Shown: positions 4,618 to 49,653, numbered from the stretch's first letter. The stretch is DNA of 64,000 nt from an uncultured bacterium (GCA_903839725.1 CAIMDG010000002.1:1078-65077); one strand, 5' to 3'. The notes: generated by a model not told the origin, from the sequence alone. Program-made: numbers and translations.

Positions 4618-4655
4618 ATGGTTTTATATATAAACCCGTACAACAAATGTGTTTC

Positions 4656-16218: not shown

Positions 16219-16270
16219 AGGTGCATTATAGAGGGAAATGCAGGATATCGCCAACTATATCTGTTGTGTA

Positions 16271-17125: not shown

Positions 17126-17149
17126 AGTTAAATTATATCACAATTGAAA

Positions 17150-33469: not shown

Positions 33470-34261
33470 TTACAAATGTGAGAAGAGTGGATGTGCATCT
33501 TCATCGTCAATACGAATACTGCCCTCAAGATAACCTCTCATCTTTTCAATAATACCGCGTATAACTGATTCTTCTTTTTCTGATATATAGTCTGGTAACG
33601 GAGCGTCGAGAATTTGTTGAATAACATCTCGAGCTTCAGTAAACTCTGTACCATATTTCTTTTCAGCTGATGACATATGACGAAAAAGCCATACGACAAC
33701 ATTATATAAAGCAAATTTTTCACTTCTAATATACAAATCTGTATCGACTAAATATATCTTTGGTATTTCATCACCTTTTCTTTTTCCATATACATATTGA
33801 GTCGTATTATTTAGATCCGCTAAATATGGTTCATCTTTTTTTGAAAGCTTGCTTAAATAATACCGAGCGATCTTTGCGTACAATTTTTCTACTTGTTCAG
33901 TTATTTCTGGAGTTGGTTCAATCTTATTCAAATCTGCGCCCTCAATTTTATCTGTAATGCCATAAATAACATCTTTATTACGACCATGTTTTCCAATAAC
34001 AAATTCAACTGGTACAACAACCCCGTAATCACGTTCAAATTCTGCATATAATTTTTGTCCCAATTCAGCCACAGCAATCGGATCAATTGCTCCTTTATAC
34101 CTCTTCTCGAGATCTTTAAAACTTTCCATTCTGACAATTTTGTCAGGATTATTCCTAATCTCAAATAATTTATCTCTACCTTCATGCGCCGAAGATATGT
34201 TGCTCTCAACCAAATGATCACTGAATGATATTTCTCGAGGTTGTGATTCAAAATCTTTCAT
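33470..34261 (-). CDS. Hypothetical protein, separated by 1 nt from the livF-like stop codon (possible translational coupling)
   Basis: ATG 34261 sits 1 nt after the upstream gene stop (34263). No confident motif. YLVDTDLYIRSEKF could be a kinase-like catalytic segment (speculative). Confidence 0.4.
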   Translation of the reverse strand: MKDFESQPREISFSDHLVESNISSAHEGRDKLFEIRNNPDKIVRMESFKDLEKRYKGAIDPIAVAELGQKLYAEFERDYGVVVPVEFVIGKHGRNKDVIYGITDKIEGADLNKIEPTPEITEQVEKLYAKIARYYLSKLSKKDEPYLADLNNTTQYVYGKRKGDEIPKIYLVDTDLYIRSEKFALYNVVVWLFRHMSSAEKKYGTEFTEARDVIQQILDAPLPDYISEKEESVIRGIIEKMRGYLEGSIRIDDEDAHPLFSHL

Positions 34262-34262
34262 A

Positions 34263-34985
34263 CTATTTATTTCCAAGAAATACTTGTTCCAACACTTTTT
34301 TTTCAATCAATTCTTTTGGATTACCCTCTGCATATATTTTTCCTTTATCCAATACATATGCTCTTGTAGTTATTTCGAGAAGTGACTTCAAATTGTGTTC
34401 GACGATGAATATGGCCGTCTTTCTGCGTTCATTAATTTCTCTGATTTTCTGGAAAACTTCCTTAACAATCTTTGGTGATAATCCAAGTGATGGTTCATCA
34501 AGCAGAAGTACCTTGGGATCCGTCATGAGTCCTCGGGCGATAGCGAGCATCTGTTGTTGTCCACCAGAGAGAGTACCTGACTTTGCTTTGAGTTTTCCTC
34601 GAAGTGCCGGGAACAATTCAAGTACATTTTCGATTCGCTCCTTACGTTCATTACTACTTTTAACATTAAATCCTCCGATCTCAAGATTTTCAAGGACAGT
34701 AAGGTGGTGAAAAACTCGGCGACCCTGCGGTACGAATGATACACCTCGTTCAACTACCTCATGCGATATAGGTTTGAACTGTTGACCTTCCCAAAAAATA
34801 TGTCCAGAACCAATAGGAGCTAAACCAAATATAGCTTTGAGAATAGTAGATTTTCCAGCACCATTTGGACCCATAAGTGCAACAATTTCTCCTTCATCGA
34901 TGAATACCGATGCTCCATCGAGTGCTTTAACGCCACCGTAATGGACGTGAATATTTTTGAGTTCGAGGAGATTTTTTTGTTTCAT
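34263..34985 (-). CDS. livF: Branched-chain amino acid ABC transporter ATP-binding protein (LivF-like)
   Basis: GPNGAGKST Walker A, LSGGQQQM signature, LLDEPSLGL Walker B. LivF-like length (240 aa). Confidence 0.85.
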   Translation of the reverse strand: MKQKNLLELKNIHVHYGGVKALDGASVFIDEGEIVALMGPNGAGKSTILKAIFGLAPIGSGHIFWEGQQFKPISHEVVERGVSFVPQGRRVFHHLTVLENLEIGGFNVKSSNERKERIENVLELFPALRGKLKAKSGTLSGGQQQMLAIARGLMTDPKVLLLDEPSLGLSPKIVKEVFQKIREINERRKTAIFIVEHNLKSLLEITTRAYVLDKGKIYAEGNPKELIEKKVLEQVFLGNK

Positions 34986-35065
34986 GGACTGAATTACGAT
35001 ACTACTTTATCTAGTAGGCATATTCTACCATGTATACCTGAAATGAGAATATTGTGAACTGAAAC

Positions 35066-36136
35066 CTATTTTTCGAACATTTTGAGATATTGATCTGCCA
35101 TTACTTCACCATTTTTGGTAAATGAATAACTAGACATACCACCAGTTACTCCGCCGAGAAAATATGTCTTGAGTCCAGAAGCAATATTGTTTGTCGAGTG
35201 ACTTTTTGCATATACATCAATGAGTTTGAAAATATCATACGTTACGGAATCATAAAATGGCGACGCAGATTCTATTCCGTACTGTGTTTTGTATACCACC
35301 AAGAAATCTTTGTAAGCTTGAGTTTCTGTAGTAAATCCAGCATCAAAGCAAACTGACTTTAAACCAAATTCTTTTGGTGTAGGTGTATATTCACAGGCAT
35401 TCACATCGCCTATCAGAAGTGGCCTATAATTCAGGACGTCCAATTCCTTGTAAACCAATCCTACTGCTTTGCCACTCGTTGGAACATAAAACAAATTATT
35501 GATGCCTTGCGACTTTAATTTCATGAGTTGTGTGCGGAATGTATTGTCAGTTGCTGAATATGTTTCCTGGCTAATAATTTTTGCACCTAGTTTGTCTTGC
35601 AATGTCATCGCCACGGACTTTGAATAATCTTGCGCTTCATACAAAAGACCAATTTTTGAATCCACTGGTAATTTCAAGGCATAATTTGCCATTGCTCCAG
35701 CGATCGAGAGTGCGTCTGGTATAAATCGGATAACTTCGTCGCCTGTCTTGCGTATTTCAGATGAACCCGCGTATGCGGTGAGAATAAGATTACCACCAGT
35801 TTTTGCAAGTGGTGCCAGGGCCAGAACACTTCCACTGCAACTTACATAGAATACATGAACGTCTTGTTGTGTGAGTTTCAAATATAATGATACAGCTTTC
35901 TTGGTATCACATTGATCATCTTCGAAAATGAGTTGGAATGAAGTCGAACTTGCGAGCTTGATAGAGTTCGCAACTTCCTCGCCAATAAGTCCTGCCGGAC
36001 CACTGAGTGGACCAATTATGCCGATCTTTATTGGCTGATCAATAGAATGGTTTTGCTTTTTAGTAGTGATTACCCAAATAAGAGCCATTATAATAAGAAT
36101 GGAAATTATAATTAGACTAGTGCGAGATGGTTTCAT
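35066..36136 (-). CDS. ABC transporter substrate-binding protein, type I (LivK/Peripla_BP_6-like), membrane-anchored
   Basis: N-terminal TM anchor then IKIGIIGPLSGPAGLIGEEVANSIKLA, the typical start of Leu/Ile/Val-binding-protein family receptors. Confidence 0.75.
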   Translation of the reverse strand: MKPSRTSLIIISILIIMALIWVITTKKQNHSIDQPIKIGIIGPLSGPAGLIGEEVANSIKLASSTSFQLIFEDDQCDTKKAVSLYLKLTQQDVHVFYVSCSGSVLALAPLAKTGGNLILTAYAGSSEIRKTGDEVIRFIPDALSIAGAMANYALKLPVDSKIGLLYEAQDYSKSVAMTLQDKLGAKIISQETYSATDNTFRTQLMKLKSQGINNLFYVPTSGKAVGLVYKELDVLNYRPLLIGDVNACEYTPTPKEFGLKSVCFDAGFTTETQAYKDFLVVYKTQYGIESASPFYDSVTYDIFKLIDVYAKSHSTNNIASGLKTYFLGGVTGGMSSYSFTKNGEVMADQYLKMFEK

Positions 36137-36149
36137 ATATCAAAAATAA

Positions 36150-36902
36150 TTATTCCCCCAAATAAGCTTCAATAACATCCTTCCTCGCCAACACCACACT
36201 TGGTGCACCTTCTGCCAAAAGTTCACCAGAATCTAGAACGTAAATATGATCCGACAATTCACGGATAAGTTCCATATTGTGTTCCACTAGAATGACAGCT
36301 TTACCTTGATCGCGAAGTTCCCTCATGACAGTTACAACCGTTTTGACCATTTCTGGAAAGAGTCCGGCAAATGGTTCATCGAAGAAAATAACATTAATAT
36401 CTCCAACTCCCGAATGAATGATAGCAAGAATACGCGCAATCTCGAGAAGTTTACGTTGTCCATATGAAAGATTTTTAGCGAGTTCACCTCTCTTTTCCCA
36501 GAGACCAACTTTCTTCAACACTTCTTCGGCTTTTTCGAGGTGAAGTTTGCTGTGCTTTTCGAACAATGATTTCCAAATACTTCTTTCGGTGAGTACGACA
36601 AGAATATTGTCGAGGACGAGCATCTGCTCGAATAATCTCACATCTTGGAATGTTCTCGTAATACCAAAGAGTGGTACCTCGTGGGCATTCATTCTCTTGA
36701 GTGTTTCAACACCAGCAATGATTATTTCCCCACCATCCGCAGGAATCATACCTGTCAAAGTGTTGATGAGTGTAGACTTACCCGAACCATTTGGACCGAT
36801 GATGCCCGTAATTTTTCCTGCCTCAAATGAAATCGAAAGTTTGTTAACAGCATGAACGCCGTCGAAGTTTTTGCTTAGTTTGTTGGTGGAGAGGATGGGC
36901 AT
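36150..36902 (-). CDS. livG: Branched-chain amino acid ABC transporter ATP-binding protein (LivG-like)
   Basis: GPNGSGKST Walker A, LSYGQRKLLEIAR signature, IFFDEPFAGL Walker B. Start at ATG 36902 (MPILSTNKLSKNF) to match the LivG N-terminus and avoid overlap. Confidence 0.85.
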   Translation of the reverse strand: MPILSTNKLSKNFDGVHAVNKLSISFEAGKITGIIGPNGSGKSTLINTLTGMIPADGGEIIIAGVETLKRMNAHEVPLFGITRTFQDVRLFEQMLVLDNILVVLTERSIWKSLFEKHSKLHLEKAEEVLKKVGLWEKRGELAKNLSYGQRKLLEIARILAIIHSGVGDINVIFFDEPFAGLFPEMVKTVVTVMRELRDQGKAVILVEHNMELIRELSDHIYVLDSGELLAEGAPSVVLARKDVIEAYLGE

Positions 36903-36916
36903 GTTACACAAATTAC

Positions 36917-38077
36917 CTATTTCAATTCCTGCCACATTTCTTGACCTTTACTGTCAAAATAATGAAGACCAATAGGAACAACAGGATTAACATTCGAGCC
37001 GAGCGTCAATGATCCTGCAGCCCCATTCCAATCCTTAATGGCAGCTAGGTAGTTTTTTATACATACTGTATCTGTTGAACTCTTACATGATTCCATTGCT
37101 TCTTTTACGAGATATACTGCATCATACGAAGTTGCCAAATACGCAATATTTGTTGGAGGTAATTGTTTGTATGCAGTTTTATATGCTTCTATGAATGCAG
37201 CTGTTTTTGAGTTGGCTGAACTTACGAAAGCGTCAGTCGTGAATATGCGAGGATTATTAAGCAATCCACCAGATTGATCATTGATAGCTGCGGACAATGA
37301 TTGTGCACCAGCAATTATTGGATACGTACTGAGCAGACCGAGCTCTTTCATTTGCTTGTAGAATGTAACACTTGCACCCGCACCCTGAGATGCAAATAAT
37401 ATTGCATCTGGCTTTTGTTTATTGATCTTCAATATATATGATCGCAAATCATTTACATCAGAATTGAATGCATCATTCGAAATGACTTGTCCACCCAATT
37501 TCACGAATTCGGCCAAGAATGCTTTGTACACTCCAACTGGAAAATCTTTATTTTCATATAATGCAGCTACTTTTCTATATCCCTGTGAATATGCATACGC
37601 AGCTGACTTGGCAGTATAGAACTCACTCGAAGGAGAATTTCGGAAAATATAACTGCCTGAATTCGTGACTGCAGGTGAAGAAGTAATTGAGGCAATAATG
37701 ACTACTTTGGCTTTTTCTACGATTGGGGCGATAGCGAGAGTCTCGGTACTACAATGTCCACCAAGAATAACATTAACCTTATCTATATTGATCAACTTAT
37801 TTGCAACAGTTGCTGAAGTTGCCCCATCACACTTACCATCTTCAACTATGAGATTCAATTTCTTTCCGAGAATACCTCCGGCTTGATTAATTTCATTCTG
37901 AGCGATCAAAACTGACTGCATTGCTGGTTCTCCGTAACTTGCAGCAGAGCCAGTGAGTGGTGATATAAGACCGATACTAATTTGATTACCCTGATCTTTT
38001 TTGAAGACACCAGAAACCGCAATCACAATAATAATGATAACAATAATCCCCCAAGTTACTTTTTTATTCATGCTCAT
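36917..38077 (-). CDS. ABC transporter substrate-binding protein, type I (LivK-like), membrane-anchored
   Basis: TM anchor then ISIGLISPLTGSAASYGEPAMQSVLIAQNEINQAGGILGKKL. Confidence 0.75.
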   Translation of the reverse strand: MSMNKKVTWGIIVIIIIVIAVSGVFKKDQGNQISIGLISPLTGSAASYGEPAMQSVLIAQNEINQAGGILGKKLNLIVEDGKCDGATSATVANKLINIDKVNVILGGHCSTETLAIAPIVEKAKVVIIASITSSPAVTNSGSYIFRNSPSSEFYTAKSAAYAYSQGYRKVAALYENKDFPVGVYKAFLAEFVKLGGQVISNDAFNSDVNDLRSYILKINKQKPDAILFASQGAGASVTFYKQMKELGLLSTYPIIAGAQSLSAAINDQSGGLLNNPRIFTTDAFVSSANSKTAAFIEAYKTAYKQLPPTNIAYLATSYDAVYLVKEAMESCKSSTDTVCIKNYLAAIKDWNGAAGSLTLGSNVNPVVPIGLHYFDSKGQEMWQELK

Positions 38078-38130
38078 AAATTAGGTTGTAATACCTAAAA
38101 TATACCAAGAATACGATCTTTGAGCTATAG

Positions 38131-39246
38131 CTACCTCCACACCCCTAACACCCCATCTTTCATCACCTGAACCTGTACGTTGATATCTTCAACTGAATGA
38201 TTTGGTGCAAAACTGATCGTACCATTTGGAGTCGTGAACTTTGTTTTGGCGATATAACTAGCAACCTGTGAATTATCAGAACTATGTGCAATAGCTTGTG
38301 CCAAGACGTACGTAGCATCAAAGAATTTATCAACGGACTTTGTAGCCGTCATGTTATAAGCCTTCTGGTACATATCCGCGAATAATTTCGTGGTAACTTC
38401 CCAGTTCAAGATTACAACATTGTTGAGTGGACTCTTGTCAGTCTCATTGGCAAAAGCATCGAGCGCTCCGTTGTATGACATAACGATTGGGGTGAAACCA
38501 AGTTGCTTCGCTTGTTTGAGGAACGTGAGCGGATCATTTCCGACCATGTCGAGGAATACGCCATCCACACCTTTATTCTTTAATTTGATAATTGTAGTTT
38601 TCCAATCATTGTCACCAATCTGTGTATATGGGTTGTCGATAACATCTGCACGACCAAGATCCTTCATGACACCAGCGAGCGTCTTTTCGATTTCAACACC
38701 GAAGCTCGACTGATAATGAACAACAGCCAATTTCTTGATTGTGCTTGAGGCGATGAATGGTTTGATCTTCTGAATTGTCTTGTCGAAGTCTGTAAGCATC
38801 ACGAAACTCTGATCATTCAAGTCAAAGCCACCCGCAATACGGAAGTTCGAAGGAGAAACAAAGGCAATCTTGTCATTCAAGGCAATTGGCAGAATAGGTT
38901 GGGCGGTGAAGTCAAAGACGCCACCAATAACACCGTTTACATGATCGATAGTTACCAGTTTGTTAAAAGCTGAAACTGCCAACTTACCGTCAGTGTGATC
39001 ATCTTCGAAAATGACTTCAACTTTTCTACCGTTGATTCCACCTGCGTCATTGATATTCTTTACTGCCAAGTTAATACCATTCTTGCCATATTCACCCCAA
39101 GGTGCAGCGAAACCTGACAAAGATAATACAGCCCCAATCTTTATTGGATTATTACTTTGTGGCTTTTGACTAGGTCTTGAAACAGAAACACCGATAATCA
39201 CAATGATAATAATAGCGACGACGGTCCATATAATTTTTTTATTCAT
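38131..39246 (-). CDS. ABC transporter substrate-binding protein, type I (LivK-like), membrane-anchored
   Basis: Start at ATG 39246 (MNKKIIW...). IKIGAVLSLSGFAAPWGEYGKNGINLAVKNINDAGGINGRKVEV. Confidence 0.75.
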   Translation of the reverse strand: MNKKIIWTVVAIIIIVIIGVSVSRPSQKPQSNNPIKIGAVLSLSGFAAPWGEYGKNGINLAVKNINDAGGINGRKVEVIFEDDHTDGKLAVSAFNKLVTIDHVNGVIGGVFDFTAQPILPIALNDKIAFVSPSNFRIAGGFDLNDQSFVMLTDFDKTIQKIKPFIASSTIKKLAVVHYQSSFGVEIEKTLAGVMKDLGRADVIDNPYTQIGDNDWKTTIIKLKNKGVDGVFLDMVGNDPLTFLKQAKQLGFTPIVMSYNGALDAFANETDKSPLNNVVILNWEVTTKLFADMYQKAYNMTATKSVDKFFDATYVLAQAIAHSSDNSQVASYIAKTKFTTPNGTISFAPNHSVEDINVQVQVMKDGVLGVWR

Positions 39247-39342
39247 ATATTTTAGGTACATTAAAAGCCGCTTGTGGCGACTTGCACATAGTATATACTC
39301 GTGATATATTATGTCCATAATTCGGCGAAAAGCGAATACTAT

Positions 39343-40107
39343 ATGAATACAAGCTTTCTAGATATATTCAATTTAGGAGACACGTCCAAGGAGGTGCTTC
39401 TTGATATCATCGCCCATGGCGTTTCCTCTGTGGCTGTTATTGCCCGTCGCCTCGGTATGCCAAAGTCGACTGTATATGACGCCATTACCCCCCTTTTGGA
39501 CCAGAGTTTGGTGAATGAATACAGCAATAACCACGGTAAAACCTTTGGTATCTCCGACAATGAACAGCTCAAGCGTGCCCACGAAGAAAAGATCAATGAG
39601 CTCAAAAAGGCCCAGTCTTCCCTGCTCTCATTCATCGGTACACATAACCAAAAAGAAAGTTCAGTTTCTCCGAAGGTAAAATTCTATGCGGGTAATCTGG
39701 GTATCAAGCAGGCGTTCCGCGATATGATGTGGGAAAAGAACATCACCGAAACGTATCTTTTTTGGCCAGCCAAAGAGATGCTCGATATCGACGAAGACTT
39801 CTTCAAATGGCACGGTACTCAGCGTTTCAAATATGGTGTTTACATATATGCGATCGAGACATACAAGGACCGTATCATTCAACGCAATGCGAAACAGAAA
39901 TGGATGCACAATACCAAAGATAGTTTGTCTGAAGCTCGCTATCTACCAAAAGGTGTAAATTGCAAAATGAGTTTCTGGATTTATGGTGACAAATGTCTCT
40001 TTGCTTCTGGCGGTAAAGAAAAGATTGCGTTTGCAGTTCACAGCAAAGAATTCTCGTCCCTGATGAAACTCCTCTGGAAAAATATGTGGGAGAATGCGGA
40101 GAAATAA
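39343..40107 (+). CDS. TrmB-family transcriptional regulator
   Basis: N-terminal HTH LGDTSKEVLLDIIAHGVSSVAVIARRLGMPKSTVYDAITPLLDQSLV plus about 170-aa TrmB-type C-terminal domain. Divergent from the SBP gene at 39246. Confidence 0.7.
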   Translation: MNTSFLDIFNLGDTSKEVLLDIIAHGVSSVAVIARRLGMPKSTVYDAITPLLDQSLVNEYSNNHGKTFGISDNEQLKRAHEEKINELKKAQSSLLSFIGTHNQKESSVSPKVKFYAGNLGIKQAFRDMMWEKNITETYLFWPAKEMLDIDEDFFKWHGTQRFKYGVYIYAIETYKDRIIQRNAKQKWMHNTKDSLSEARYLPKGVNCKMSFWIYGDKCLFASGGKEKIAFAVHSKEFSSLMKLLWKNMWENAEK

Positions 40108-40136
40108 AAAACACCGAATGATCGGTGTTTTTTATT
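40106..40136. terminator. Bidirectional hairpin terminator
   Basis: aaaaaacaccgaatgatcggtgttttttattttt. Confidence 0.7.
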
Positions 40137-40137
40137 T

Positions 40138-41217
40138 TTAATTCGGCAACTTTCCTCCCTCAATCGTTCCAATCTTTAATTCTGGAATGCGCACACCATT
40201 TTCATCAAACACAATCTTTCCATCAGCCCCGACGAGGGTGACATGCTTCATATTGTTCACCCATGTAGCCTTATCTGAATTGTAACTTTGAGCTAGAAGC
40301 ATAAAAGCATTGTAACCAGTCTCTGAACCGATCGCCGGTTCGACACCATACATTTTCTTGTAAGCCTCATTGAACGTACTGCGGTACACGTTTGGAACGG
40401 TATAGAGAATACTTCCATTTAACACATTCATATTTCCGAGCACTTTCGCATAGTCACCAAATCCTGTTTGGATATTTGCGTCGAATACATACCGATATTT
40501 TGTGTGTGAGATTGAACCGAGCTCCTTTGCAAGAAGTCCGCCAGAAGTTGGTTTGACGATAAACACGATTACGTCTGGCTTGAATGAGATCGCTTTCAAA
40601 GCACTTGATTTGATATCCCGACCATCAGCTGAAACTTGGATTTCGTTGTATGGCATAGCAAATCCTTTTTCAAAACCTTGAGCAAAACGTTCAAAAGCCG
40701 AAGATCCTTTGTCGACAAACACAACGGCATTCTTGAATCCTTTACCAGCAACGTATTTACCAAGCTCAACTTCAGCTGGCACACTTCCTGGCCACAACTG
40801 AACAATGTTGTCATTCGCCGCTTCAATTCCTTGTTCAAAACCGAGAGCAACTGGCATACCAGTCTGCACAACGTCTCCATAGATCGAATCAATTGTAACC
40901 GTTGTCATGTTAATGAGACCATCAACATGATCAATACTTACAAGTTTCTTGTAGGCCGAAAGTCCTTTCTTGGAATCAAAACTGTCATCTTCAGTTATAA
41001 GCGAAATCTGTTGATTTATATGTGAACTATTCCATTCAGCCTGAGCGAGCTTTGCACCTTTGGCAAAACTATCACCGACAGCGGCATAATCACCGGTCAT
41101 TCCAGCAATCATGCCAAATGTGAGCTGTGTGGTTGGTTTCTTCGTATTAAACAAACCAATCATCACAATAACTAGAATTACCACAACTAGGCCTGAAATT
41201 TGATATTTTTTATTCAT
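40138..41217 (-). CDS. ABC transporter substrate-binding protein, type I (LivK-like), membrane-anchored
   Basis: Start ATG 41217 (MNKKYQISGL...). LTFGMIAGMTGDYAAVGDSFAKGAKLAQAEWN. Confidence 0.75.
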   Translation of the reverse strand: MNKKYQISGLVVVILVIVMIGLFNTKKPTTQLTFGMIAGMTGDYAAVGDSFAKGAKLAQAEWNSSHINQQISLITEDDSFDSKKGLSAYKKLVSIDHVDGLINMTTVTIDSIYGDVVQTGMPVALGFEQGIEAANDNIVQLWPGSVPAEVELGKYVAGKGFKNAVVFVDKGSSAFERFAQGFEKGFAMPYNEIQVSADGRDIKSSALKAISFKPDVIVFIVKPTSGGLLAKELGSISHTKYRYVFDANIQTGFGDYAKVLGNMNVLNGSILYTVPNVYRSTFNEAYKKMYGVEPAIGSETGYNAFMLLAQSYNSDKATWVNNMKHVTLVGADGKIVFDENGVRIPELKIGTIEGGKLPN

Positions 41218-41387
41218 ATAATGTGATTTATTTGTAACAATATTAGTATACATATATCAAATATAATCAAGAAATAAATCATAACTTTGAATATATACAT
41301 GAATTATATCCATATGTATCAATCCATATCTAAATATTAGTATGTCAGGAATATTGACACTTTCATACATAATGCTAGAATCTACAC

Positions 41388-42203
41388 ATGAAAATCAAAC
41401 AAAGTTCAATCATAGACCTCCTACAGCTCAGCAAAAAAGAGCAGGTCATTTTCAACCTACTCAACAATGAATCATCCACACCTGTATCACTAGCCAAGAA
41501 ATGCTCTATCCCCCGCCCTACCATATATATCACTCTCGAAAAGCTCCACAACCGTGGCTTAATCATAAAAAAGAAAATCTCACACAAAACCTACTGGCAA
41601 AAGAATTCTGATGATGAAATCGAGAGTCTCGCCTACCGATTCAAGGAGTTGCTTTCAGCAAGTAGTGCTACAAAGCAAGAAAAGATTTCCATCACTGATT
41701 CTTCACAGGTCGTTGTTCATCGTGGACAAAAAGCTATCTTCAAACTATTCTCCAGTCTAGTTGACGAACACGCTGGTGAAAAGATGATCGCACTTCAGGG
41801 AAATCTTGCAGGATATGCGTGGAGTAAGTTATTTAACGTGCAAGAAATTAACATCATCAACCAGAAGATTAAGAAAAATAAAGTTATTACGGAACTTGTT
41901 ACTTCTAGGGAGTGGTTCAAGAGTCAAACTGAACTCTTTGGTACAGGTTGGGCCAAAAACTTTGAAGGTAGAACGATTCGTATGCAGGATGTTGGGAACC
42001 AGTACTTGAATTACGCTAGTCAGATATTTATTTTCAGAGACAAAGTATATATTGACGCAATGTCGGATAAAGTCTTCATCGAAATAAAGAACCCAGAGAT
42101 TGCGAAGCTGCTGGTTTCAATTACGCAGTTTGTTCAAGATCATTCGGAGGTGTTGGATGCGAATAAACTTCTCAGAGAACTGATCAGTAACAATTCAAAA
42201 TAG
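41388..42203 (+). CDS. TrmB-family transcriptional regulator
   Basis: HTH LSKKEQVIFNLLNNESSTPVSLAKKCSIPRPTIYITLEKLHNRGLI plus TrmB C-terminal domain. Confidence 0.7.
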   Translation: MKIKQSSIIDLLQLSKKEQVIFNLLNNESSTPVSLAKKCSIPRPTIYITLEKLHNRGLIIKKKISHKTYWQKNSDDEIESLAYRFKELLSASSATKQEKISITDSSQVVVHRGQKAIFKLFSSLVDEHAGEKMIALQGNLAGYAWSKLFNVQEINIINQKIKKNKVITELVTSREWFKSQTELFGTGWAKNFEGRTIRMQDVGNQYLNYASQIFIFRDKVYIDAMSDKVFIEIKNPEIAKLLVSITQFVQDHSEVLDANKLLRELISNNSK

Positions 42204-43070
42204 TTATAACCTATACTCCCCAACCAAACCCTGTGGCCTATACAACATCAACAGTATCAATATAACACCATACACCACTTGACGCATTTGCGCTGCAATG
42301 TCATCTGGAAAACCGACGAAGCGCAGGACTTCCGGCAAAAGGATGAGACATATTGCCCCGATAACTGCACCCTTGTTATTCGCCATACCACCCAAGATAA
42401 CCACAGCCAGAATGAAGATGGATTCCGTCAAAGTGAAACTCGATGGATCGATAAATGTAATGTACGAAGCAAAAAGTGAGCCTGCCACTGCCGCCATTCC
42501 TGCCGAGACAACGAAGATGGCGAGCTTGTACCAGAGAACGCGGTAACCAAAGACTTGAATAGCTTTTTCATCTTCACGGATAGCCTTGAGCACACGACCA
42601 AACGATGAATTCGTAATGTAGTGACAAACACCAAAAACAATCAGAGCACAGACAACCGCAAGAACAAGGAACCAACTATTTTCAGAGAAAGTAAAACCGA
42701 ATATGCTTGGGCGAGGAATTCCAGGAATACCGAGCGGACCACGTGTGAGCGACTGCCAATTCAAGAAAATACTATAAATGATGACGTTGAAACCAAATGA
42801 ACCCAGTGCATAATAATCATCTTTGAATTTTGAAAGCACAAAACCTATCGCTAGACTCAACACTGCGGTAATGATAATACTGAAAAGCATAGCGAGAAAG
42901 AAATTCATGCCAACTGAAGTAAGCAGGATTGCTGTCACATATGCACCAATACCATAGAATGCTGCTTGAGTAATACTGAGCAGACCTGTGAATCCTACAA
43001 TCAAGTTCAAAGAAAGACCGAGAATGGCGTAGATCGAGATCAGGATGGCAATGTGTATGAGATATTCCAT
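42204..43070 (-). CDS. livM: Branched-chain amino acid ABC transporter permease (LivM-like)
   Basis: Eight or more TM helices. GIPGIPRP and EAAFYGIGAY-type motifs of the LivM family. Confidence 0.8.
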   Translation of the reverse strand: MEYLIHIAILISIYAILGLSLNLIVGFTGLLSITQAAFYGIGAYVTAILLTSVGMNFFLAMLFSIIITAVLSLAIGFVLSKFKDDYYALGSFGFNVIIYSIFLNWQSLTRGPLGIPGIPRPSIFGFTFSENSWFLVLAVVCALIVFGVCHYITNSSFGRVLKAIREDEKAIQVFGYRVLWYKLAIFVVSAGMAAVAGSLFASYITFIDPSSFTLTESIFILAVVILGGMANNKGAVIGAICLILLPEVLRFVGFPDDIAAQMRQVVYGVILILLMLYRPQGLVGEYRL

Positions 43071-43071
43071 A

Positions 43072-43938
43072 TTATTTCTTTAATATTCCCTGTGGTCTAA
43101 ACAACAAAAAAATAATCAATACTCCGAAGGCAATCGCATCTTTCCATTCACCGGAAATCTGCCAGATACCAAAGTTCTCGATAAAGCCGAGGAGGAATGC
43201 ACCGAGTACACCGCCATATACATTGCCGATACCACCGATGATACACGCAATCACACCTTTCAAGAGAAGTGACAATCCCATCGTTGGTTCTATACCAGTA
43301 TCAAAGCCAACGAGAATACCAGCGAGACCGGCGATCGCTGAGCCTATAAAAAATGTCCATCCGATAACTCTAACAGTATTGATACCAACGATCTTCGAAA
43401 CTTCCTCATCATCCCCCACTGCTTTGATAGCTTTACCGAACAATGTGTACCTGAACATGAGACCAATACCAACCATGATGAGAATTCCGAGAATGAGAAT
43501 GATAAGTTGTGTCTGCGTGATCACTCCGCCAAAAACGGTATATACCATTTCACTACCCGCATTTTTCGAAAGTGTCTGGAATTGACTCGTAAATAAAATA
43601 GCAATAATAGCCTGTAATGCTGTCATCACTCCGAGAGCAGCAACCAGAAGAACCATGCTTGATGATTTGCGAGTACGTAGTGGTGCGTATACAAAATGAT
43701 ATATAAGTACCCCAATAGTTCCTGCAATGAGAATACCGAGAGCAACAGAAACGAATATATCTAAACCGAGTATTTTATAGAAGAAGAAAACAGTATATCC
43801 ACCAACCGCCGCAAGAGCACCGTATCCCAAATCAAAGAATTTAGCTGTACCGTAAATCAGATTGAAACCGAGAGCGACCATGGCATATATCGCTCCAGCA
43901 ATGATTGAGTTGACGATGAGTTGAGGGATGATGTCCAT
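43072..43938 (-). CDS. livH: Branched-chain amino acid ABC transporter permease (LivH-like)
   Basis: Polytopic membrane protein. GYGALAAVGGY and EPTMGLSLLLKG motifs of the LivH family. 1-nt gap to livM. Confidence 0.8.
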   Translation of the reverse strand: MDIIPQLIVNSIIAGAIYAMVALGFNLIYGTAKFFDLGYGALAAVGGYTVFFFYKILGLDIFVSVALGILIAGTIGVLIYHFVYAPLRTRKSSSMVLLVAALGVMTALQAIIAILFTSQFQTLSKNAGSEMVYTVFGGVITQTQLIILILGILIMVGIGLMFRYTLFGKAIKAVGDDEEVSKIVGINTVRVIGWTFFIGSAIAGLAGILVGFDTGIEPTMGLSLLLKGVIACIIGGIGNVYGGVLGAFLLGFIENFGIWQISGEWKDAIAFGVLIIFLLFRPQGILKK

Positions 43939-44160
43939 GAATGTATGTAATACAGCTAAGTATACCCATTAAATAGGTACTTGAAAATAGACCATTATTT
44001 GATATCCTAAAGACTGAAAGGACCTCTATGAAATACGATCGACCAACGTGCACCTCAGCAACAACAACTCGGCCACCCATTTCGGCGAATTTTTCACCGC
44101 CACCCGCGGAACCCCGCCCGAAACCGGCTGCCAAACCGAAAAAGTAGGGACCGAAGCTGC

Positions 44161-44194
44161 ACAACAAAAGCCCACGAACTTGTTCGTGGGCTTT
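44161..44194 (-). terminator. Rho-independent terminator after the SBP gene
   Basis: 11-bp stem agcccacgaac/gttcgtgggct followed, on the minus strand, by ttttgttgtg. Confidence 0.65.
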
Positions 44195-44220
44195 CATACT
44201 AATACAATTAACTAATCAAC

Positions 44221-45333
44221 TTACTGAACATCTACAAACTTACCATCTTTGGCGATTTTTATCATTGCAGGTTTCTGAACATCTCCATTTGATTCAAATG
44301 TAATAACGCCACTTGCGCCTTGATAATTATTACCAATCTTTAATAAATTTTCTTTTATTGAATCACCAGAAGTTCCCCCAGCTTTGATAGCTCTAAGTAA
44401 CAAGGTCATAGCATCATACCCTTCTGCGGTATACATTGTTGGAGCATTTCCAAAACGAGCCTTGTATCTTTCCGTAAAAGTTTTACTTGCTTCATTTGTT
44501 GGAACCACAGTGGCTGAAACTAAAACCCCATTTACATCCTTTCCTCCAACATCGAAGAATTCTTTTGTATCTACCGATTCGTCCAGAGCTGCAAATTGAA
44601 CATGTAAACCTAGATTCTTTGCTTGCTTAAAGATTAAATTGAATTGCTTATAAAATGACGCGACGAAGATTACATCAACTCCAGCCCCCTTCGCCTTTAA
44701 TAATTGAGTTCTAAAATCTGTGTCTTTTGCATTAAAGGTATCTTTTGTCACAACTTGACCACCTGCTTTAGCAAAAGTATCACTAGCATCACTAACTTCT
44801 TGGACCATCGTATCCTGACTATTGTCGTTTATGAAAGCTGCTTTTTTAAAGCCTTTTGAATACACGTACTCTGCCAAAGAATTTGCCCTGACTGAATCTG
44901 AAGCAATTGTTCTGAACATATATTTACCAGCATTAGTCAAAGTCTTTGAAGTTGCTGCTGGTGTAATTATCAATATTTTTTTAGGATCGGTAATTGGTAA
45001 TACTGATAAAACTTCAGAAGAACATACTGGGCCATACAAAGCATCTACCTTATCAATATTTAATAACTTAGATACAGCAGTAACACCATCTGCTGAGGCA
45101 CAATTGTGATCATCTTCAATAATGAAATTAACCTTATCTTTCATACCACTTTCTTCAATTGCCATAATAGCAGCATTGCGAGAACTTTCAGCATATGAAG
45201 CCAAATCTCCAGAAAGTGGCAATACGGCTCCAATCTTAACAGGACCAATCTCAGTATTTGAATTACGTGTTGCAGAAATAATGATTATCACAACCACAAC
45301 AATTCCAATCACCCACCAAATACCTTTTTTCAT
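44221..45333 (-). CDS. ABC transporter substrate-binding protein, type I (LivK-like), membrane-anchored
   Basis: TM anchor then VKIGAVLPLSGDLASYAESSRNAAIMAIEESG. Confidence 0.75.
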   Translation of the reverse strand: MKKGIWWVIGIVVVVIIIISATRNSNTEIGPVKIGAVLPLSGDLASYAESSRNAAIMAIEESGMKDKVNFIIEDDHNCASADGVTAVSKLLNIDKVDALYGPVCSSEVLSVLPITDPKKILIITPAATSKTLTNAGKYMFRTIASDSVRANSLAEYVYSKGFKKAAFINDNSQDTMVQEVSDASDTFAKAGGQVVTKDTFNAKDTDFRTQLLKAKGAGVDVIFVASFYKQFNLIFKQAKNLGLHVQFAALDESVDTKEFFDVGGKDVNGVLVSATVVPTNEASKTFTERYKARFGNAPTMYTAEGYDAMTLLLRAIKAGGTSGDSIKENLLKIGNNYQGASGVITFESNGDVQKPAMIKIAKDGKFVDVQ

Positions 45334-45390
45334 AATAAAGAATAATTACAAATAATATGTCAATTATAGTTGATACTCCCATTTCTGCAA

Positions 45391-45422
45391 CAACAAAAAA
45401 CCACCCTCTCGAGTGGTTTTTT
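45391..45422. terminator. Hairpin terminator (sequence duplicated at 47512)
   Basis: caacaaaaaaccaccctctcgagtggtttttt. The identical 32-mer recurs at 47512-47543. Confidence 0.7.
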
Positions 45423-45437
45423 ACTGTTCAAATTAAC

Positions 45438-46538
45438 TTATGGCTGTATTGTTATTGGTTTACCATCTTTAATCATACGTATTACCGCTCCAGAAACAAC
45501 AAGTCCATCAGAATCAATACTAAGATTCCCCAAGGCCCCTTGAACGTTTTTGATTGTATACAATTTTTCAGCAATCTGTTCTGACGTCGGCAATGTATTT
45601 GAGTCTACTTTTTCTGCAGCATCTGAAATTAAATGAATTATATCGTAAGCGTTTCCTGCCCCGAGTGAAGGTGGTTTATTATAGATTTTTGAATAAGAAT
45701 CTATAAATGATAATGTTGTATCAGCACCATTTACGTACCAATCTCCTTCATATATTTCAGGATGATCACTTTGTTCAAACGATTCTATAGAAGTAACAGG
45801 CGTAGTGATTCCATTTTCTTTAAGTTGTTTTGCAATAAGATCCAATTCTGGACTAAAGGCAAACAATACGTATATATCCGGATGATTGGATTGTGCCTTA
45901 GCAATCATCGTTCTAAAATCTTTTGTGCCAAAATCAAACATTTCTTGATCTACTATCTGTATGTCTGTATTTTGTATATCTTTTTGCAAAGAATGTATCA
46001 CGGCCGTTACACCTTGTATTTTAGCACCCAATATTGCCACCCTATGATATCCTCGCTTTTGTAATTCTGGCACAAAGATCTTCGTCTCCTCATAAGGTGG
46101 GGTCCAGTGAATAAAATTATAATGGCCATTTGCGACATTTGGATCAGAAGCAATACCAAACTGAATAACACGTGCTTTTTCAGCAACTGGATTGACCGCA
46201 TTACCTGCTGCCGAAGCAAGTGTGACGATTGCCGCTACATGATCAATAGATATAAGTTTTTGGGCTGCACTTACTGCCTTTGACGCATCAAATGAATCAT
46301 TTTCAAGTATTACCTTGTATTGCCATTTATTATTTGTAGTTGAAGCCAACTCAGCTTCAGCCATGCGAACCGCGTATTTAATCCCATCGCCCAAAAAGGC
46401 AACATTTCCAGTTAAAGGTGCGATGACACCAATTTTTATTATTTTATTATCATTTAATACTATGTGCTTAGAGTAATTAGCTCCAATCAAAATACCGGCC
46501 AAAATGACGATTATTACGACAAAAATCTTTGTTTTCAT
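45438..46538 (-). CDS. ABC transporter substrate-binding protein, type I (LivK-like), membrane-anchored
   Basis: TM anchor then IKIGVIAPLTGNVAFLGDGIKYAVRMAEAE. Confidence 0.75.
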   Translation of the reverse strand: MKTKIFVVIIVILAGILIGANYSKHIVLNDNKIIKIGVIAPLTGNVAFLGDGIKYAVRMAEAELASTTNNKWQYKVILENDSFDASKAVSAAQKLISIDHVAAIVTLASAAGNAVNPVAEKARVIQFGIASDPNVANGHYNFIHWTPPYEETKIFVPELQKRGYHRVAILGAKIQGVTAVIHSLQKDIQNTDIQIVDQEMFDFGTKDFRTMIAKAQSNHPDIYVLFAFSPELDLIAKQLKENGITTPVTSIESFEQSDHPEIYEGDWYVNGADTTLSFIDSYSKIYNKPPSLGAGNAYDIIHLISDAAEKVDSNTLPTSEQIAEKLYTIKNVQGALGNLSIDSDGLVVSGAVIRMIKDGKPITIQP

Positions 46539-46714
46539 ATATACATATTATTAGTAGTAATATGTATCCTTAATATCATTACCCCAAAACTTGTTTATAT
46601 CTTTAGAAGAGTAGCTAAATATATATTCATATTTAAAGCCATATTTTGATATAAAATTTAATAGTGTGCGTCCATAGTGACAAAATCTGTATATGTGATA
46701 ACATATATATCATT

Positions 46715-47509
46715 ATGTCAATGGATACAAAAATATACAAAGAATTAAACAGGTTCGGCTTATCAGATAAATCAGCCAAAGTGTATGCTGTTCTACTTGA
46801 TCTTGGTGGAGCCTACCCTTCACGTATAGCTGAATCAGCCCATCTAAACCGTACAACTGTTTATAAAATATTAATTGATCTTTCCATAAAAGGTCTAATA
46901 AATGAAATAAACAAAAATGGTAAAGTCTTCTATCAAGTAGAACGTCCATCTCAGCTTATTAAATATGCAAAAAATCGTAGGGATACAGCGGATGAACAAT
47001 ACGAGAGAATAAAGAATCTTATGCCAGAAATAGAAGGTCTGTACTCACTCACGCCCAATAAACCAAAGATACGATACTTTGAGGATAGCTCTAGTGTCGC
47101 CTCTATATTCGAAGATCAAGTCGATGTAAAGAAACCTTACGAAATGGTGGGTTTTGCAAATATTGAAAGGCTTGAAAAATTTCTAAAACCTTCATTTATA
47201 AAATGGTATATAAAAGAAAAGGAAAGAAAAGGAATTACTACCAGAGGAATTCTGCCTGACACCAAATTAAACAGAACATACAATGAACGTGTATACAAAG
47301 TTATAAACAAAAAATTCCAGTTAAATAACATTCGCTACATTCCGAAAGAAGAATTTCCTTTTAATGGTGAGATAACGATTTACGGAGAAAACAAGATGTC
47401 TATAATTAATTTTATTGACGAACAAGCTGTGGGGATTATTATCGAAGACAAAGCAATTCACGACATGATGGTTAGAATATTTGAGCTCTCTTGGAAAGGT
47501 TCCCAGTAA
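46715..47509 (+). CDS. TrmB-family transcriptional regulator
   Basis: HTH LSDKSAKVYAVLLDLGGAYPSRIAESAHLNRTTVYKILIDLSIKGLI. Start at the internal ATG (MSMDTKIYKEL), not the longest ORF. Confidence 0.7.
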   Translation: MSMDTKIYKELNRFGLSDKSAKVYAVLLDLGGAYPSRIAESAHLNRTTVYKILIDLSIKGLINEINKNGKVFYQVERPSQLIKYAKNRRDTADEQYERIKNLMPEIEGLYSLTPNKPKIRYFEDSSSVASIFEDQVDVKKPYEMVGFANIERLEKFLKPSFIKWYIKEKERKGITTRGILPDTKLNRTYNERVYKVINKKFQLNNIRYIPKEEFPFNGEITIYGENKMSIINFIDEQAVGIIIEDKAIHDMMVRIFELSWKGSQ

Positions 47510-47511
47510 CC

Positions 47512-47545
47512 CAACAAAAAACCACCCTCTCGAGTGGTTTTTTGT
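47512..47545. terminator. Hairpin terminator (duplicate of 45391)
   Basis: caacaaaaaaccaccctctcgagtggttttttgt. Confidence 0.7.
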
Positions 47546-47562
47546 TCTACGACTTTTACCTT

Positions 47563-48681
47563 TTACTGTCCTAACGTAACCGGCACACCACCTTTGATCA
47601 TTCTGACAACCGCCTTTGAGTTAACTAGATGGTCAGTTCCCATATTCAAGCCTGTTCCGAGAGCCCCATCAAAGTTTTTGATACTTGAAACCTTGGCATT
47701 GATTTGCTGACTGGTTGGGATGGTCTTTCCATCACCTGCTGCTTCGATAGATTGTACGAGCATGTTGAGTGAGTCGTATCCGTTGGCCGCACCGAACTTT
47801 GGTGCTTGACCGTATGTCTTTGTGTAGAGATCTACGAACCACTGTGTCGCGTCCGCATTATTCACGTACCACATACCTTCGAAGAGTGAGAGCTGATCTG
47901 AGAACTCGAATGTTTCCATTGTACTTACTGCGGTTTTAACACCTGCTGTGCGTAACTGTGTTGTAACCAATTCCAATTCTGGTGAAGAAAGTTCGAGGAC
48001 ATAGAGTTCAGCACCGAGATCTTTCACTTTACTGATCTGAGTACGGAAGTCGCGTGTTCCGGTAGTGATCATTTGAGTCGAAACTACTTGAATCCTTGAT
48101 TTACCGATTTCACTCAAGAAAGCATTAATGATCGCTGCACTTCCTGGGTTATCCTGCTGACCGAAGAAGACAATCTTATTGATATTACGTCTCTGTAATT
48201 CAGCAACGAACAACTTGGCATCTTCGTACGCTGGAGTGTAGTCAACATAGTTATATTCACCTGTTGCTACATGTGGATCTGAAGCAAAGTCATTGATATG
48301 AGGTATTTTTGCAGCTTCTGTGATTGGACTCACTACATTACCAACTGGTGAACCAAATGAGATGAGTGCATTCGCCTTATCAACACTGATGAGCTTATTT
48401 ACTACAGTTGCTGCATTTGATGGCTTGAATCCATCATCTTCAATCACAAGCTTGTAACTATACTTGAGATTCTTTGTGTCCAACTTACTGTATGCGAGCT
48501 CAATAGCATTTTTATTACTTTGACCAAGCATTGCTATGTTTCCGGTAAGTGGCAATGTAACTCCGATAGTAACAACTGGCTTTTGTGTGTTCGTACCTGG
48601 ATTTCTTGTAGAAAAACCTATAATACAAGCCACGATTACTATTCCAATAATACCTAATATGATTTTTGTTGTTTTATTCAT
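47563..48681 (-). CDS. ABC transporter substrate-binding protein, type I (LivK-like), membrane-anchored
   Basis: TM anchor then VTIGVTLPLTGNIAMLGQSNKNAIELAYSK. About 50% identical to the 45438 paralog. Confidence 0.75.
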   Translation of the reverse strand: MNKTTKIILGIIGIVIVACIIGFSTRNPGTNTQKPVVTIGVTLPLTGNIAMLGQSNKNAIELAYSKLDTKNLKYSYKLVIEDDGFKPSNAATVVNKLISVDKANALISFGSPVGNVVSPITEAAKIPHINDFASDPHVATGEYNYVDYTPAYEDAKLFVAELQRRNINKIVFFGQQDNPGSAAIINAFLSEIGKSRIQVVSTQMITTGTRDFRTQISKVKDLGAELYVLELSSPELELVTTQLRTAGVKTAVSTMETFEFSDQLSLFEGMWYVNNADATQWFVDLYTKTYGQAPKFGAANGYDSLNMLVQSIEAAGDGKTIPTSQQINAKVSSIKNFDGALGTGLNMGTDHLVNSKAVVRMIKGGVPVTLGQ

Positions 48682-48855
48682 ATATTTACTATTAATTATT
48701 AATGTGGTGAAATTATAACACGCAAATTGATTTTGTTATTTTTAAATATTAAATTGATGTATAAATACGGCTTATAATATAGGGTATTGTAGTTATCCAC
48801 ATATTTTGTTCGTTAAAAGTGACAAAATACATCATTCCTGCTATACTGTATACAT

Positions 48856-49653
48856 ATGAAAAATGAAACTATTATTCGTCATTTACAAAAGACTGGTCTG
48901 AGTGAAAAAACAGCTATAATTTACGCTACTCTCCTTGAATTGGGCGGTGCCTACCCTTCCCGCTTGGCTGAAGTGACCAAGCTCAATCGTAGTACCATAT
49001 ATAAAATTCTCCTTGAATTATCGATCAAAGGTCTCATTACCGAAATTGAACGTGGTAAAAAACTCTTCTACCAGATCGAAAATCCTGCGAAGCTCATTCG
49101 TTTTACAAAAACTCAGTCAGACATGGCACAAGAAGCATATGAAAAGACCCGTGACCTCATTCCTGAACTCGAAGGTATCTTTGCCATGAATCCAAACAAA
49201 CCTATCATCAGATACTTCAATGATGCTGATGGTATTATTTCCATCTATGAAGAAATGGTCTCACAAAAAAAGAAATACGAGATGATTTCATTCTCGCATG
49301 GTCAGGCTTTCAAGAATTATCTACCAGCAAAATCACTGTATACATTCGTCAAAGCAAAAGAGCGCTTTGGTATTACAACTCGCGCTATCATCCCAGATAC
49401 TGCCGAAAACAGAAAATATGACGAAGAAGTATTCAAGGGCCTAGACAAAAAAGCTTGGCCGGATATTCGTTACGTACCAAAGGAAGTATTCCCCTTTGAA
49501 GCGGAAATGACTTTGTACGACAATGACAAGCTTGCCATCACCAAACTTACTGGCGAAAAACTTATCGGTATTGTTATCGAAGACAAACTTGTTCACGACA
49601 TGTTCAAAATGATTTTTGAACTCCTCTGGAAGTCAGATCAAGTTAAGAAATAA
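48856..49653 (+). CDS. TrmB-family transcriptional regulator
   Basis: HTH LSEKTAIIYATLLELGGAYPSRLAEVTKLNRSTIYKILLELSIKGLI. About 55-60% identical to the 46715 paralog over full length. Confidence 0.7.
   Translation: MKNETIIRHLQKTGLSEKTAIIYATLLELGGAYPSRLAEVTKLNRSTIYKILLELSIKGLITEIERGKKLFYQIENPAKLIRFTKTQSDMAQEAYEKTRDLIPELEGIFAMNPNKPIIRYFNDADGIISIYEEMVSQKKKYEMISFSHGQAFKNYLPAKSLYTFVKAKERFGITTRAIIPDTAENRKYDEEVFKGLDKKAWPDIRYVPKEVFPFEAEMTLYDNDKLAITKLTGEKLIGIVIEDKLVHDMFKMIFELLWKSDQVKK

Follow-up and report, generated by a model that had tools for sequence, protein, structure and literature searches.

A LivHMGF-type importer locus of a Patescibacteria bacterium with seven receptor genes, four of them divergently paired with TrmB-family regulator genes

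We describe here an ATP-binding cassette (ABC) importer locus of the LivHMGF type, encoded on a 64-kb stretch of DNA from an uncultured bacterium (GCA_903839725.1, contig CAIMDG010000002.1, nucleotides 1078-65077; this whole stretch is termed the window, and positions are counted from its first nucleotide). The locus encodes seven paralogous substrate-binding proteins (SBPs), one pair of permeases, one pair of ATPases and four proteins with a TrmB-type helix-turn-helix (HTH). On balance, we favor the view that one LivHMGF pump is served by seven receptors, four of which lie in cassettes that are locally controlled by cognate TrmB-family regulators. Such a cassette would bring together a receptor gene, a regulator gene of the TrmB family, the short control region between these two divergent genes and, in some instances, a terminator. 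Each regulator subfamily would recognize its own palindromic operator, whose overlap with or abutment on the -35 element of the regulator's own promoter implies autoregulation. The operator would also lie in the region held in common with the SBP promoter, and could thereby confer local transcriptional control on individual receptors. The sign that we favor is repression of both divergent promoters, relieved by some signal, with SBP5, livHM and probably livF expressed from promoters of their own. We infer control of the SBP promoters from operator geometry and co-inheritance, and the sign of that control and any ligand response are likewise predictions.

Gene content and transcription units

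By Pfam, the sixteen genes at the locus comprise seven SBPs, two permeases, two ABC ATPases, four TrmB-HTH proteins and one unrelated open reading frame (ORF). The initial annotation had these families of receptor, pump and regulator right, and its gene order and four divergent pairs were recovered exactly. Every SBP gene lies on the minus strand and all four TrmB-HTH genes on the plus strand, each divergent from one SBP gene (SBP3/Trm1, SBP4/Trm2, SBP6/Trm3, and SBP7/Trm4). Rather than falling into unrelated families, all seven SBPs belong to Peripla_BP_6, exceed the gathering score of PF13458 and carry an N-terminal hydrophobic membrane anchor. The receptors of cassettes 1 to 4 are SBP3 (38131-39246; E 1.6e-47), SBP4 (40138-41217; E 2.3e-19), SBP6 (45438-46538; E 7.5e-40), and SBP7 (47563-48681; E 2.1e-38), respectively. 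No regulator gene adjoins SBP1 (35066-36136; E 5.1e-17), SBP2 (36917-38077; E 6.8e-55), or SBP5 (44221-45333; E 1.7e-54), the last of which has its own candidate promoter.

The pump genes, also on the minus strand, encode a LivF-type ABC ATPase (34263-34985; ABC_tran, E 5.9e-35), a LivG-type ABC ATPase (36150-36935; ABC_tran, E 4e-24) with a borderline BCA_ABC_TP_C tail (25.2 bits vs. a cut-off of 25.5), and LivM- and LivH-type permeases (42204-43070 and 43072-43938; BPD_transp_2, PF02653, E 2.9e-50 and 1.5e-41). Two LivH/LivM-type permeases, two ATPases and a Peripla_BP_6 receptor are the components of the HAAT/LivHMGF family (TC 3.A.1.4). Elsewhere the window carries the bacterial housekeeping genes rpoB, rpoC, sigma-70, dnaG, hisS, bipA, and trmD, and those homologs of the regulators that bear a name come from Patescibacteria, or the candidate phyla radiation (CPR), including Taylorbacteria, Paceibacterota, Parcubacteria and others. 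The locus is thus an amino-acid-type (HAAT/LivHMGF) ABC importer locus of a Patescibacteria bacterium, and it recurs in several metagenome assemblies. An archaeal origin, an idea prompted by TrmB, was ruled out by the bacterial rpoB/rpoC, sigma-70, and dnaG genes of the window and by the Patescibacteria names of the homologs.

SBP5 is a canonical LivJ-like protein, with 3td9 as its top PDB match by sequence (E 8e-44) and further matches to solved LIV-binding proteins. Identity to the E. coli proteins LivJ and LivK, to which all receptors were aligned, is only 17-25%; the alignment was read against the list of LivJ contact residues (PMC6983066). In this low-identity alignment, SBP5 retains LivJ Cys78-Ser79 and Ala100-Ala101-Thr102, SBP1 retains Cys78/Ser79, and the positions that in LivJ anchor alpha-amino and carboxylate groups are partly to mostly kept in SBP1, SBP2, SBP6, and SBP7. 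Contact positions are most divergent in SBP3 and SBP4, above all in SBP4. Positions of the side-chain pocket differ in every paralog, which fits distinct, predicted ligand specificities among the receptors.

Bidirectional terminators, which had been proposed to separate the units, were found at two of the four convergent junctions. One lies between Trm1 and SBP4 (40108-40135; an A6-hairpin-T6 with a free energy of -15.8 and -16.9 kcal/mol on the two strands, z -7.0 and -8.8) and the other between Trm3 and SBP7 (47516-47545; -15.1 and -20.5 kcal/mol). By RNAfold, both range from about -15 to -20.5 kcal/mol with z from -5 to -8.8 across both strands. No terminator was found at the Trm2/livM junction, where the gap is 0 bp, or at the Trm4/orf117 junction (12-bp gap, z about -1). 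One-way terminators on the minus strand follow SBP5 (44164-44197; -20.8 kcal/mol, z -6.5) and SBP6 (45391-45427; -19.0 kcal/mol). A generic terminator scan missed all of the junction terminators, which were revealed by the junction sequences together with RNAfold. Candidate minus-strand promoters that match the consensus precede SBP5 (TTGCAG-16-TATAAT, 45390-45363), livH (TTTTCA-17-TATACT, 43987-43959), and livF (TTCTCA-16-TAGAAT, 35049-35022). Because of these terminators and candidate promoters, the predicted transcription units are [SBP7], [SBP6], [SBP5], [livH-livM], [SBP4], and [SBP3-SBP2-livG-SBP1(-livF)], which would place most of the pump outside the regulators' control.

Architecture of the regulators and their operators

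Trm1 (39343-40107; 26.9 bits), Trm2 (41388-42203; 35.0 bits), Trm3 (46715-47509; 46.5 bits), and Trm4 (48856-49653; 45.3 bits), all on the plus strand, pass the gathering cut-off of PF01978, the TrmB HTH (25.6 bits). With hhalign, Trm1 aligns with the Trm3/4 family over 247 columns (99.6% probability) and Trm2 over 237 columns (97.8%), and the family profile matches residues 6-92 of TrmB (3qph; E 1.3e-5). Sequence alone identifies just the N-terminal winged HTH (wHTH) in these proteins, with no Pfam match beyond the HTH. Trm4 was modeled with AlphaFold2 from an alignment of 48 sequences (mean predicted local distance difference test score, 88.6), and the model has a wHTH at residues 1-73, a long helix at 79-110 and an alpha/beta domain at 117-258. 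Its top full-length fold match is TrmBL2 (Foldseek E 5e-14, about 270 columns; 5bpi, 5bpd, 5bqt, and 5box). The dimerization helix is thus followed by a PLD-like alpha/beta domain, which corresponds to the N-terminal subdomain of the TrmB effector domain, and the proteins stop at 254-271 amino acids, right after it. In TrmB and TrmBL1 the sugar effector is bound by an additional C-terminal domain (PMC4877046), and this sugar-recognition subdomain is absent here. Scores against the NCBIfam TrmB/TrmBL1 equivalogs are only 18-31 bits vs. cut-offs of 600-650. The four regulators are therefore TrmB-family members of TrmBL2 architecture and not sugar-sensing TrmB sensu stricto; the sugar-responsive regulators of the initial annotation do not survive this comparison, and the effector domain whose absence it had named as decisive is present in part only.

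Archaeal TrmB and TrmBL1 resemble these proteins in their PF01978 HTH, in the succession of wHTH, dimerization helix and PLD-like domain, and in being encoded beside an ABC transporter with a binding protein. The Thermococcales proteins differ in their C-terminal sugar-effector domain, which the CPR proteins lack (PMC4877046), and the partners here are type-I, amino-acid-type receptors. It is on the likeness, and on the name of the PF01978 family, that a classical TrmB logic would draw, in which sugar-responsive regulators control SBPs that import sugars, as TrmB controls an adjacent ABC sugar transporter (PMC4877046). We consider such a logic very improbable at this locus, given that the SBPs are LivJ-like Peripla_BP_6 proteins, related in sequence to solved proteins with amino-acid, urea or aromatic-acid ligands, and that both permeases and ATPases are of the LivHMGF type.

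Each control region contains an operator-like palindrome. The operator of cassette 1 (ATTCGGCGAAAAGCGAAT, 39320-39337) is an imperfect palindrome that is conserved right before the Trm1 ATG in three related loci (L006, L063, and L077) and abuts the -35 element TGGACA (39317-39312) of a candidate SBP3 promoter. That of cassette 2 (TGTCA-N7-TGACA, 41343-41359) is conserved in two (L078 and L054), and its right arm falls in the -35 element of a candidate Trm2 promoter (TTGACA-16-TAGAAT, 41354-41381). In both cassettes, the operator directly abuts the -35 element of the candidate SBP promoter. Cassettes 3 and 4 carry an operator of the Trm3/4 family, termed O1. In cassette 4, O1 (TATTTTGTTCGT-N5-GTGACAAAATAC, 48802-48830, plus strand) scores 35.7 bits with a position weight matrix (PWM), and its right arm is the -35 element of a candidate Trm4 promoter (GTGACA-17-TATACT); in cassette 3, a degenerate copy (46660-46688, plus strand; 21.8 bits) overlaps the Trm3 -35 element. 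The block ATTTTGTTCGT-N5-(G/T)TGACAAA occurs in 31 of 35 orthologous SBP6/7-Trm3/4 intergenic regions, mostly 46-50 bp ahead of the regulator ATG, with its right arm as the regulator -35 element followed by an extended -10 element. A PWM made from other genomes only finds exactly these two sites in the 64 kb (48802 and 46660), the next best scoring 9.5 bits.

Cassettes 3 and 4 also contain a second, weaker conserved TTTGT site, located 73 bp upstream of the TTTGT of O1, and a TTTGT offset peak at -73 was found in 59 loci. This second site overlaps the predicted -35 elements of the SBP6 and SBP7 promoters; for SBP7, the candidate promoter is ATAACA-16-TGnTATAAT (48712-48740, minus strand), whose -35 element overlaps the auxiliary TTTGT (O2). 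An inverted element resembling GGCY-N6-9-RGCC (AGGCTATATTTTAGCCT in L076, for instance) is semi-conserved between the two TTTGT sites, some 25-40 bp ahead of the Trm3/4-type operator (48765-48785 in the window; L005-L084). It is present with or without an adjacent SBP gene and may be a site for another factor or a part of the divergent promoter.

Beyond the Trm3/4 family, six regulator subfamilies keep distinct palindromes at the corresponding position: ATTCGGCGAA-N-CGAAT in the Trm1-type subfamily, TGTCA-N7-TGACA in the Trm2-type subfamily, and CTCTCCT-N5-AGGAGAG, GTTG-N10-CAAC, CTGTT-N12-AACAG, and GTCATCAAAAnTATTGAC in others. These putative operators are new to this analysis. Such a pattern would be expected of sequence-specific, autoregulated local regulators and not of a general chromatin protein like TrmBL2. 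In L020, the operator position some 40 bp ahead of a Trm2-like gene (15867-16613, minus strand) is taken by a perfect 36-bp palindrome, GAATTACAAATAACCAAATTTGGTTATTTGTAATTC.

TrmBL2, a chromatin protein that is abundant and for which no ligand is known (PMC4877046), nevertheless resembles these regulators in its three-part architecture and its length of about 265 amino acids. It is conceivable that they act in the same manner, as ligand-independent, oligomerizing, DNA-coating silencers of the whole divergent region or of newly acquired cassettes, nucleating at one specific site, rather than as nutrient sensors. TrmBL2 is the top full-length structural match and shares the architecture without an effector subdomain (PMC4877046), and a spacing of 73 bp between two sites would allow a tetramer to bridge them. 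We give this explanation little credence. TrmBL2 is a single, highly conserved and abundant protein in each genome (PMC4877046), coating DNA with little preference for sequence, whereas up to seven diverged TrmB-like paralogs occur in a 20-kb locus here, each with a specific gene partner and with a distinct, conserved and specific palindrome of the kind typical of specific local regulators. The polar residues of the C-terminal domain, moreover, are conserved within each subfamily and differ between subfamilies, which fits subfamily-specific ligands or partners; in Trm4 the residues of this kind are E142, K168, T175, R176, E217, Y221, K225, E242, and D243.

Receptor-regulator cassettes in related genomes

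Relatives were collected in a scan of one genome per species with a profile of the Trm3/4 family, which yielded 80 loci, and the proteins of the window were searched against the ORFs of these loci. Wherever the record title names a lineage (automatic bin labels aside), it is a Patescibacteria group. Divergent SBP-regulator pairs include 76 of the 143 TrmB-like genes and 76 of the 125 SBPs with enough flank, so that the pairs are syntenic in relatives as had been anticipated. Several loci have repeated pairs (e.g., L006, L010, L016, L052, L055, L063, L071, L075, and L079), the most crowded being L079, with seven SBPs and six regulators in 20 kb. The position of a cassette relative to livH, livM, livG, and livF varies and may even be between livM and livH (L010 and L070). 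Orthologs of the SBP3/Trm1 pair occur in L006, L026, L063, L076, and L077, and those of SBP4/Trm2 in L078 and L054; proteins like SBP2, which has no adjacent regulator in the window, are paired with a divergent TrmB-like gene in other genomes. In L022 and L051 (similarly in L012 and L031), one gene of the SBP6/7 type heads a full SBP-livH-livM-livG-livF operon adjoining a Trm3/4-type gene. A simple locus of this kind, with a local regulator and a divergent transporter operon, is plausibly the ancestral state.

Regulators and receptors have diverged together. Their distance matrices for 80 pairs correlate with a Mantel r of 0.751, and none of 2000 shuffles of partners within loci, which control for the species tree, reached this value (mean r 0.13, maximum 0.41). 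The best match of a regulator in another locus was paired with the best match of its SBP in 713 of 837 comparisons (chance expectation, about 0.36), and independent clusterings of the two families agree with an adjusted Rand index of 0.751, the larger clusters corresponding almost one-to-one in at least seven types. This shows that a cassette is inherited, and duplicated, as one unit. The co-duplication for which the initial annotation had proposed a phylogenetic test is seen within the window itself. Identity reaches 43% between SBP6 and SBP7 and 50% between Trm3 and Trm4, whose recognition helices are near-identical (NRTTVYKIL and NRSTIYKIL), while the remaining paralog pairs of either family are 20-32% identical or barely detectable; cassettes 3 and 4 therefore represent one duplicated unit. 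A 32-nt terminator sequence (CAACAAAAAACCACCCTCTCGAGTGGTTTTTT) is 100% identical after SBP6 (45391-45422) and after SBP7 (47512-47543), and no further copy was found in the window or in the loci of other species. Such identity beside receptors that are only 43% identical suggests gene conversion or strong constraint.

Co-divergence alone does not prove a functional link between regulator and SBP, and several observations weigh against local control of the receptors. Among the 80 central Trm3/4-type genes, 34 are linked to an SBP gene and 40 are not. The SBP-linked state is clustered on the Trm3/4 protein tree (63 of 74 nearest neighbors alike), and the unlinked genes have diverse neighbors, including Aminotran_5, radical SAM and PNPase, with no recurrent neighbor of the unpaired Trm3/4-type genes among the loci. 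The Trm3/4 operator pattern has 67 matches in 1.28 Mb. Almost every match immediately precedes a Trm3/4-type gene, and about 30 of the loci concerned have no SBP nearby. An upstream module of about 150 bp (O1, the GGCY-N-RGCC-like element and the TTTGT at -73) is conserved in the SBP-linked and unlinked sets alike, and persists beside Trm3/4-type genes without an SBP neighbor in about 28-40 loci; autoregulation alone therefore explains the strongest operator conservation. In cassettes 3 and 4, about 110 bp separate the strong operator from the predicted SBP transcription start downstream of it. The promoters were predicted from the consensus alone, in a scan that gave 60 promoter-like sites vs. 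55 expected by chance. Insulation between circuits is also incomplete. Trm3 and Trm4 have one operator type and near-identical recognition helices in common, so their two cassettes lack insulation and cross-talk between them is likely. No terminator lies between SBP3, SBP2, livG, and SBP1, whose successive gaps measure 53, 0, and 13 bp, and livG may be read from the SBP3 promoter, in which case Trm1 affects a subunit of the pump. Finally, the regulators lack the TrmB sugar subdomain and have TrmBL2 as their nearest structural relative; the effector domain is incomplete, with just the PLD-like subdomain, and ligand-specific induction is therefore conjectural, if plausible. The one-to-one pairing originally proposed thus stands at the level of subfamilies, which are matched almost one-to-one, and gives way at the common operator type of Trm3 and Trm4 and at the roughly 40 loci with no SBP.

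These points could be accommodated if the regulators were merely autoregulated neighbors, with targets, if any, elsewhere, and the SBP genes were expressed constitutively from their own promoters. The Trm3/4 operator module is equally conserved beside an aminotransferase, a radical-SAM enzyme and other unrelated genes; the strong operator overlaps the -35 element of the regulator only, some 110 bp from the predicted SBP7 start; and SBP-proximal promoter sequences are not conserved in position, none having been found when relatives were anchored on the SBP start codon. We nevertheless regard mere neighborhood as unlikely. Regulator and receptor subfamilies match almost one-to-one across at least seven types, with partners that duplicate and move together, and linkage alone would not readily account for the retention of a divergent partner by 61% of SBPs in genomes that differ in cassette order and in position within the liv locus. 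The operators of cassettes 1 and 2, in addition, abut the -35 element of the SBP promoter, and the second conserved TTTGT overlaps that of SBP7 and SBP6. The SBP-linked state is clustered on the Trm3/4 protein tree (63 of 74 nearest neighbors alike), and the unlinked genes have diverse neighbors, including Aminotran_5, radical SAM and PNPase, with no recurrent neighbor of the unpaired Trm3/4-type genes among the loci.

The single translocator of the initial annotation holds within the window, where it is verifiable, and is in line with the relatives. No further ABC permease or ATPase was found among the scanned ORFs of at least 120 amino acids in the 64 kb, a scan in which 55439-57178 and 57181-59235 were covered by precomputed Pfam entries of an identical contig and from which 49666-50019...51076-51630 and small overlapping ORFs were left out. 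Even so, some of the seven SBPs could have a sensory role or work with another translocator encoded elsewhere, given that just 64 kb of the genome is visible. SBP-regulator cassettes were observed in ten loci without livH/livM (L056, L058, L064, L013, L017, L029, L039, L044, L054, and L078), and cassettes can therefore sit away from pump genes; in the first three of these the absence spans about 10 kb on each side, and L058 comes from a closed 716-kb chromosome (OZ246403.1). The window itself contains an orphan SBP_bac_5 gene (Opp/Nik/Dpp-like; 55439-57178) that adjoins RNase J and for which no cognate permease or ATPase was found in the window, indicating that SBPs are not always encoded beside pumps. 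We consider it improbable that receptors of this locus are diverted in such a way, since a second livH or livM is absent from all 29 loci that contain at least two SBPs, the cassettes are interleaved with pump genes, the genomes are small, and the use of one LivHMGF by LivJ and LivK is a precedent in the same family.

A single pump with locally controlled receptors thus remains the reading that we favor, and comparative support is good for the cassettes and for cognate local regulators. More tentatively, the cassettes may represent a large, hitherto unrecognized Patescibacteria-wide family of plug-in units of at least seven types, each with a type-I receptor, a cognate regulator of TrmBL2 architecture and a private operator. 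Such units would duplicate, diverge and insert within or beside a single LivHMGF, and the PLD-like domain of the regulator would sense the metabolite of the receptor or a related one by a binding mode unlike that of TrmB; we hold this broader proposal to be possible, with the odds against it.

Relation to known systems and flanking features

The sharing of one translocator by several receptors is well documented. E. coli LivJ and LivK, which belong to the same HAAT family, also exceed one receptor per LivHMGF translocator, but there are two of them as against seven here, the livJ/livK region, as far as it was inspected, has no divergent regulator gene and there is no amplification of cassettes. 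In Pseudomonas aeruginosa, DppA1-A5 likewise serve one translocator, DppBCDF (PMC4206461). The closest parallel in design is the Opp system of Borrelia burgdorferi, in which five diverged OppA receptors share one translocator; the permeases and ATPases are constitutive and the receptors are differentially and independently regulated, in an amino-acid auxotroph with a reduced genome (PMC5736914). Borrelia Opp belongs to the oligopeptide ABC family with cluster C SBPs, unlike the type-I LivJ-like receptors here, and the paper describes neither a dedicated local regulator for each receptor nor a duplicating cassette of receptor, regulator and operator (PMC5736914). The initial annotation held the organization to be undescribed. 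The design principle that it proposed is not new, since receptors under independent regulation and a constitutive pump are known together from the Opp system of Borrelia, a reduced-genome auxotroph (PMC5736914); the cassette with its regulator does seem to be undescribed. What appear to be new are the pairing of a LivJ-type receptor with a regulator of TrmBL2 architecture, the duplicating cassettes with private operators, and their breadth across Patescibacteria. Full-text searches of an incomplete literature collection found no mention of TrmB in connection with Patescibacteria, CPR, Parcubacteria or Saccharibacteria, nor any relevant link of the TrmB family with LIV-type transporters.

Transcriptional regulation in CPR/Patescibacteria is almost unexplored, and the present analysis yields at least seven regulator subfamilies, each with a defined predicted operator and a receptor partner. 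Were the regulators responsive to ligands, the cassettes would reveal which nutrients these obligate scavengers monitor, and the TrmB/PLD-like fold would have a new mode of effector binding. Plug-in cassettes, if borne out, would constitute a modular, ligand-by-ligand scavenging circuit in organisms with very few transcription factors. Should the regulators prove unresponsive to ligands, the locus would still be a clear bacterial case of one pump with many receptors, built by accretion of cassettes inside an operon.

The first gene of the locus in coordinate order (33470-34261, minus strand) had been taken for livF, an assignment that we correct here. It is an unrelated ORF of 263 amino acids from its ATG, or 278 from an upstream TTG, with no Pfam or NCBIfam match, and livF is the next gene, at 34263-34985. 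The ATG of this ORF sits 1 bp past the livF stop codon and the two are probably co-transcribed; no homolog of the ORF was found beside liv genes in related loci. Between the SBP5 terminator and the candidate livH promoter lies a stretch of about 120 bp (44040-44160) with 60% GC in surroundings of about 38%. It has no Rfam match, its sole homolog among the fetched loci is on a contig of the same organism (L003), and possible explanations are a remnant, an insertion and a small structured RNA. Farther from the locus, at 3235-6170 and 16271-17794, several genes encode PKD or Laminin_G domains along with an N-terminal methylation motif like that of type IV pilins, and their products probably belong to pili or adhesins that serve an episymbiotic lifestyle.

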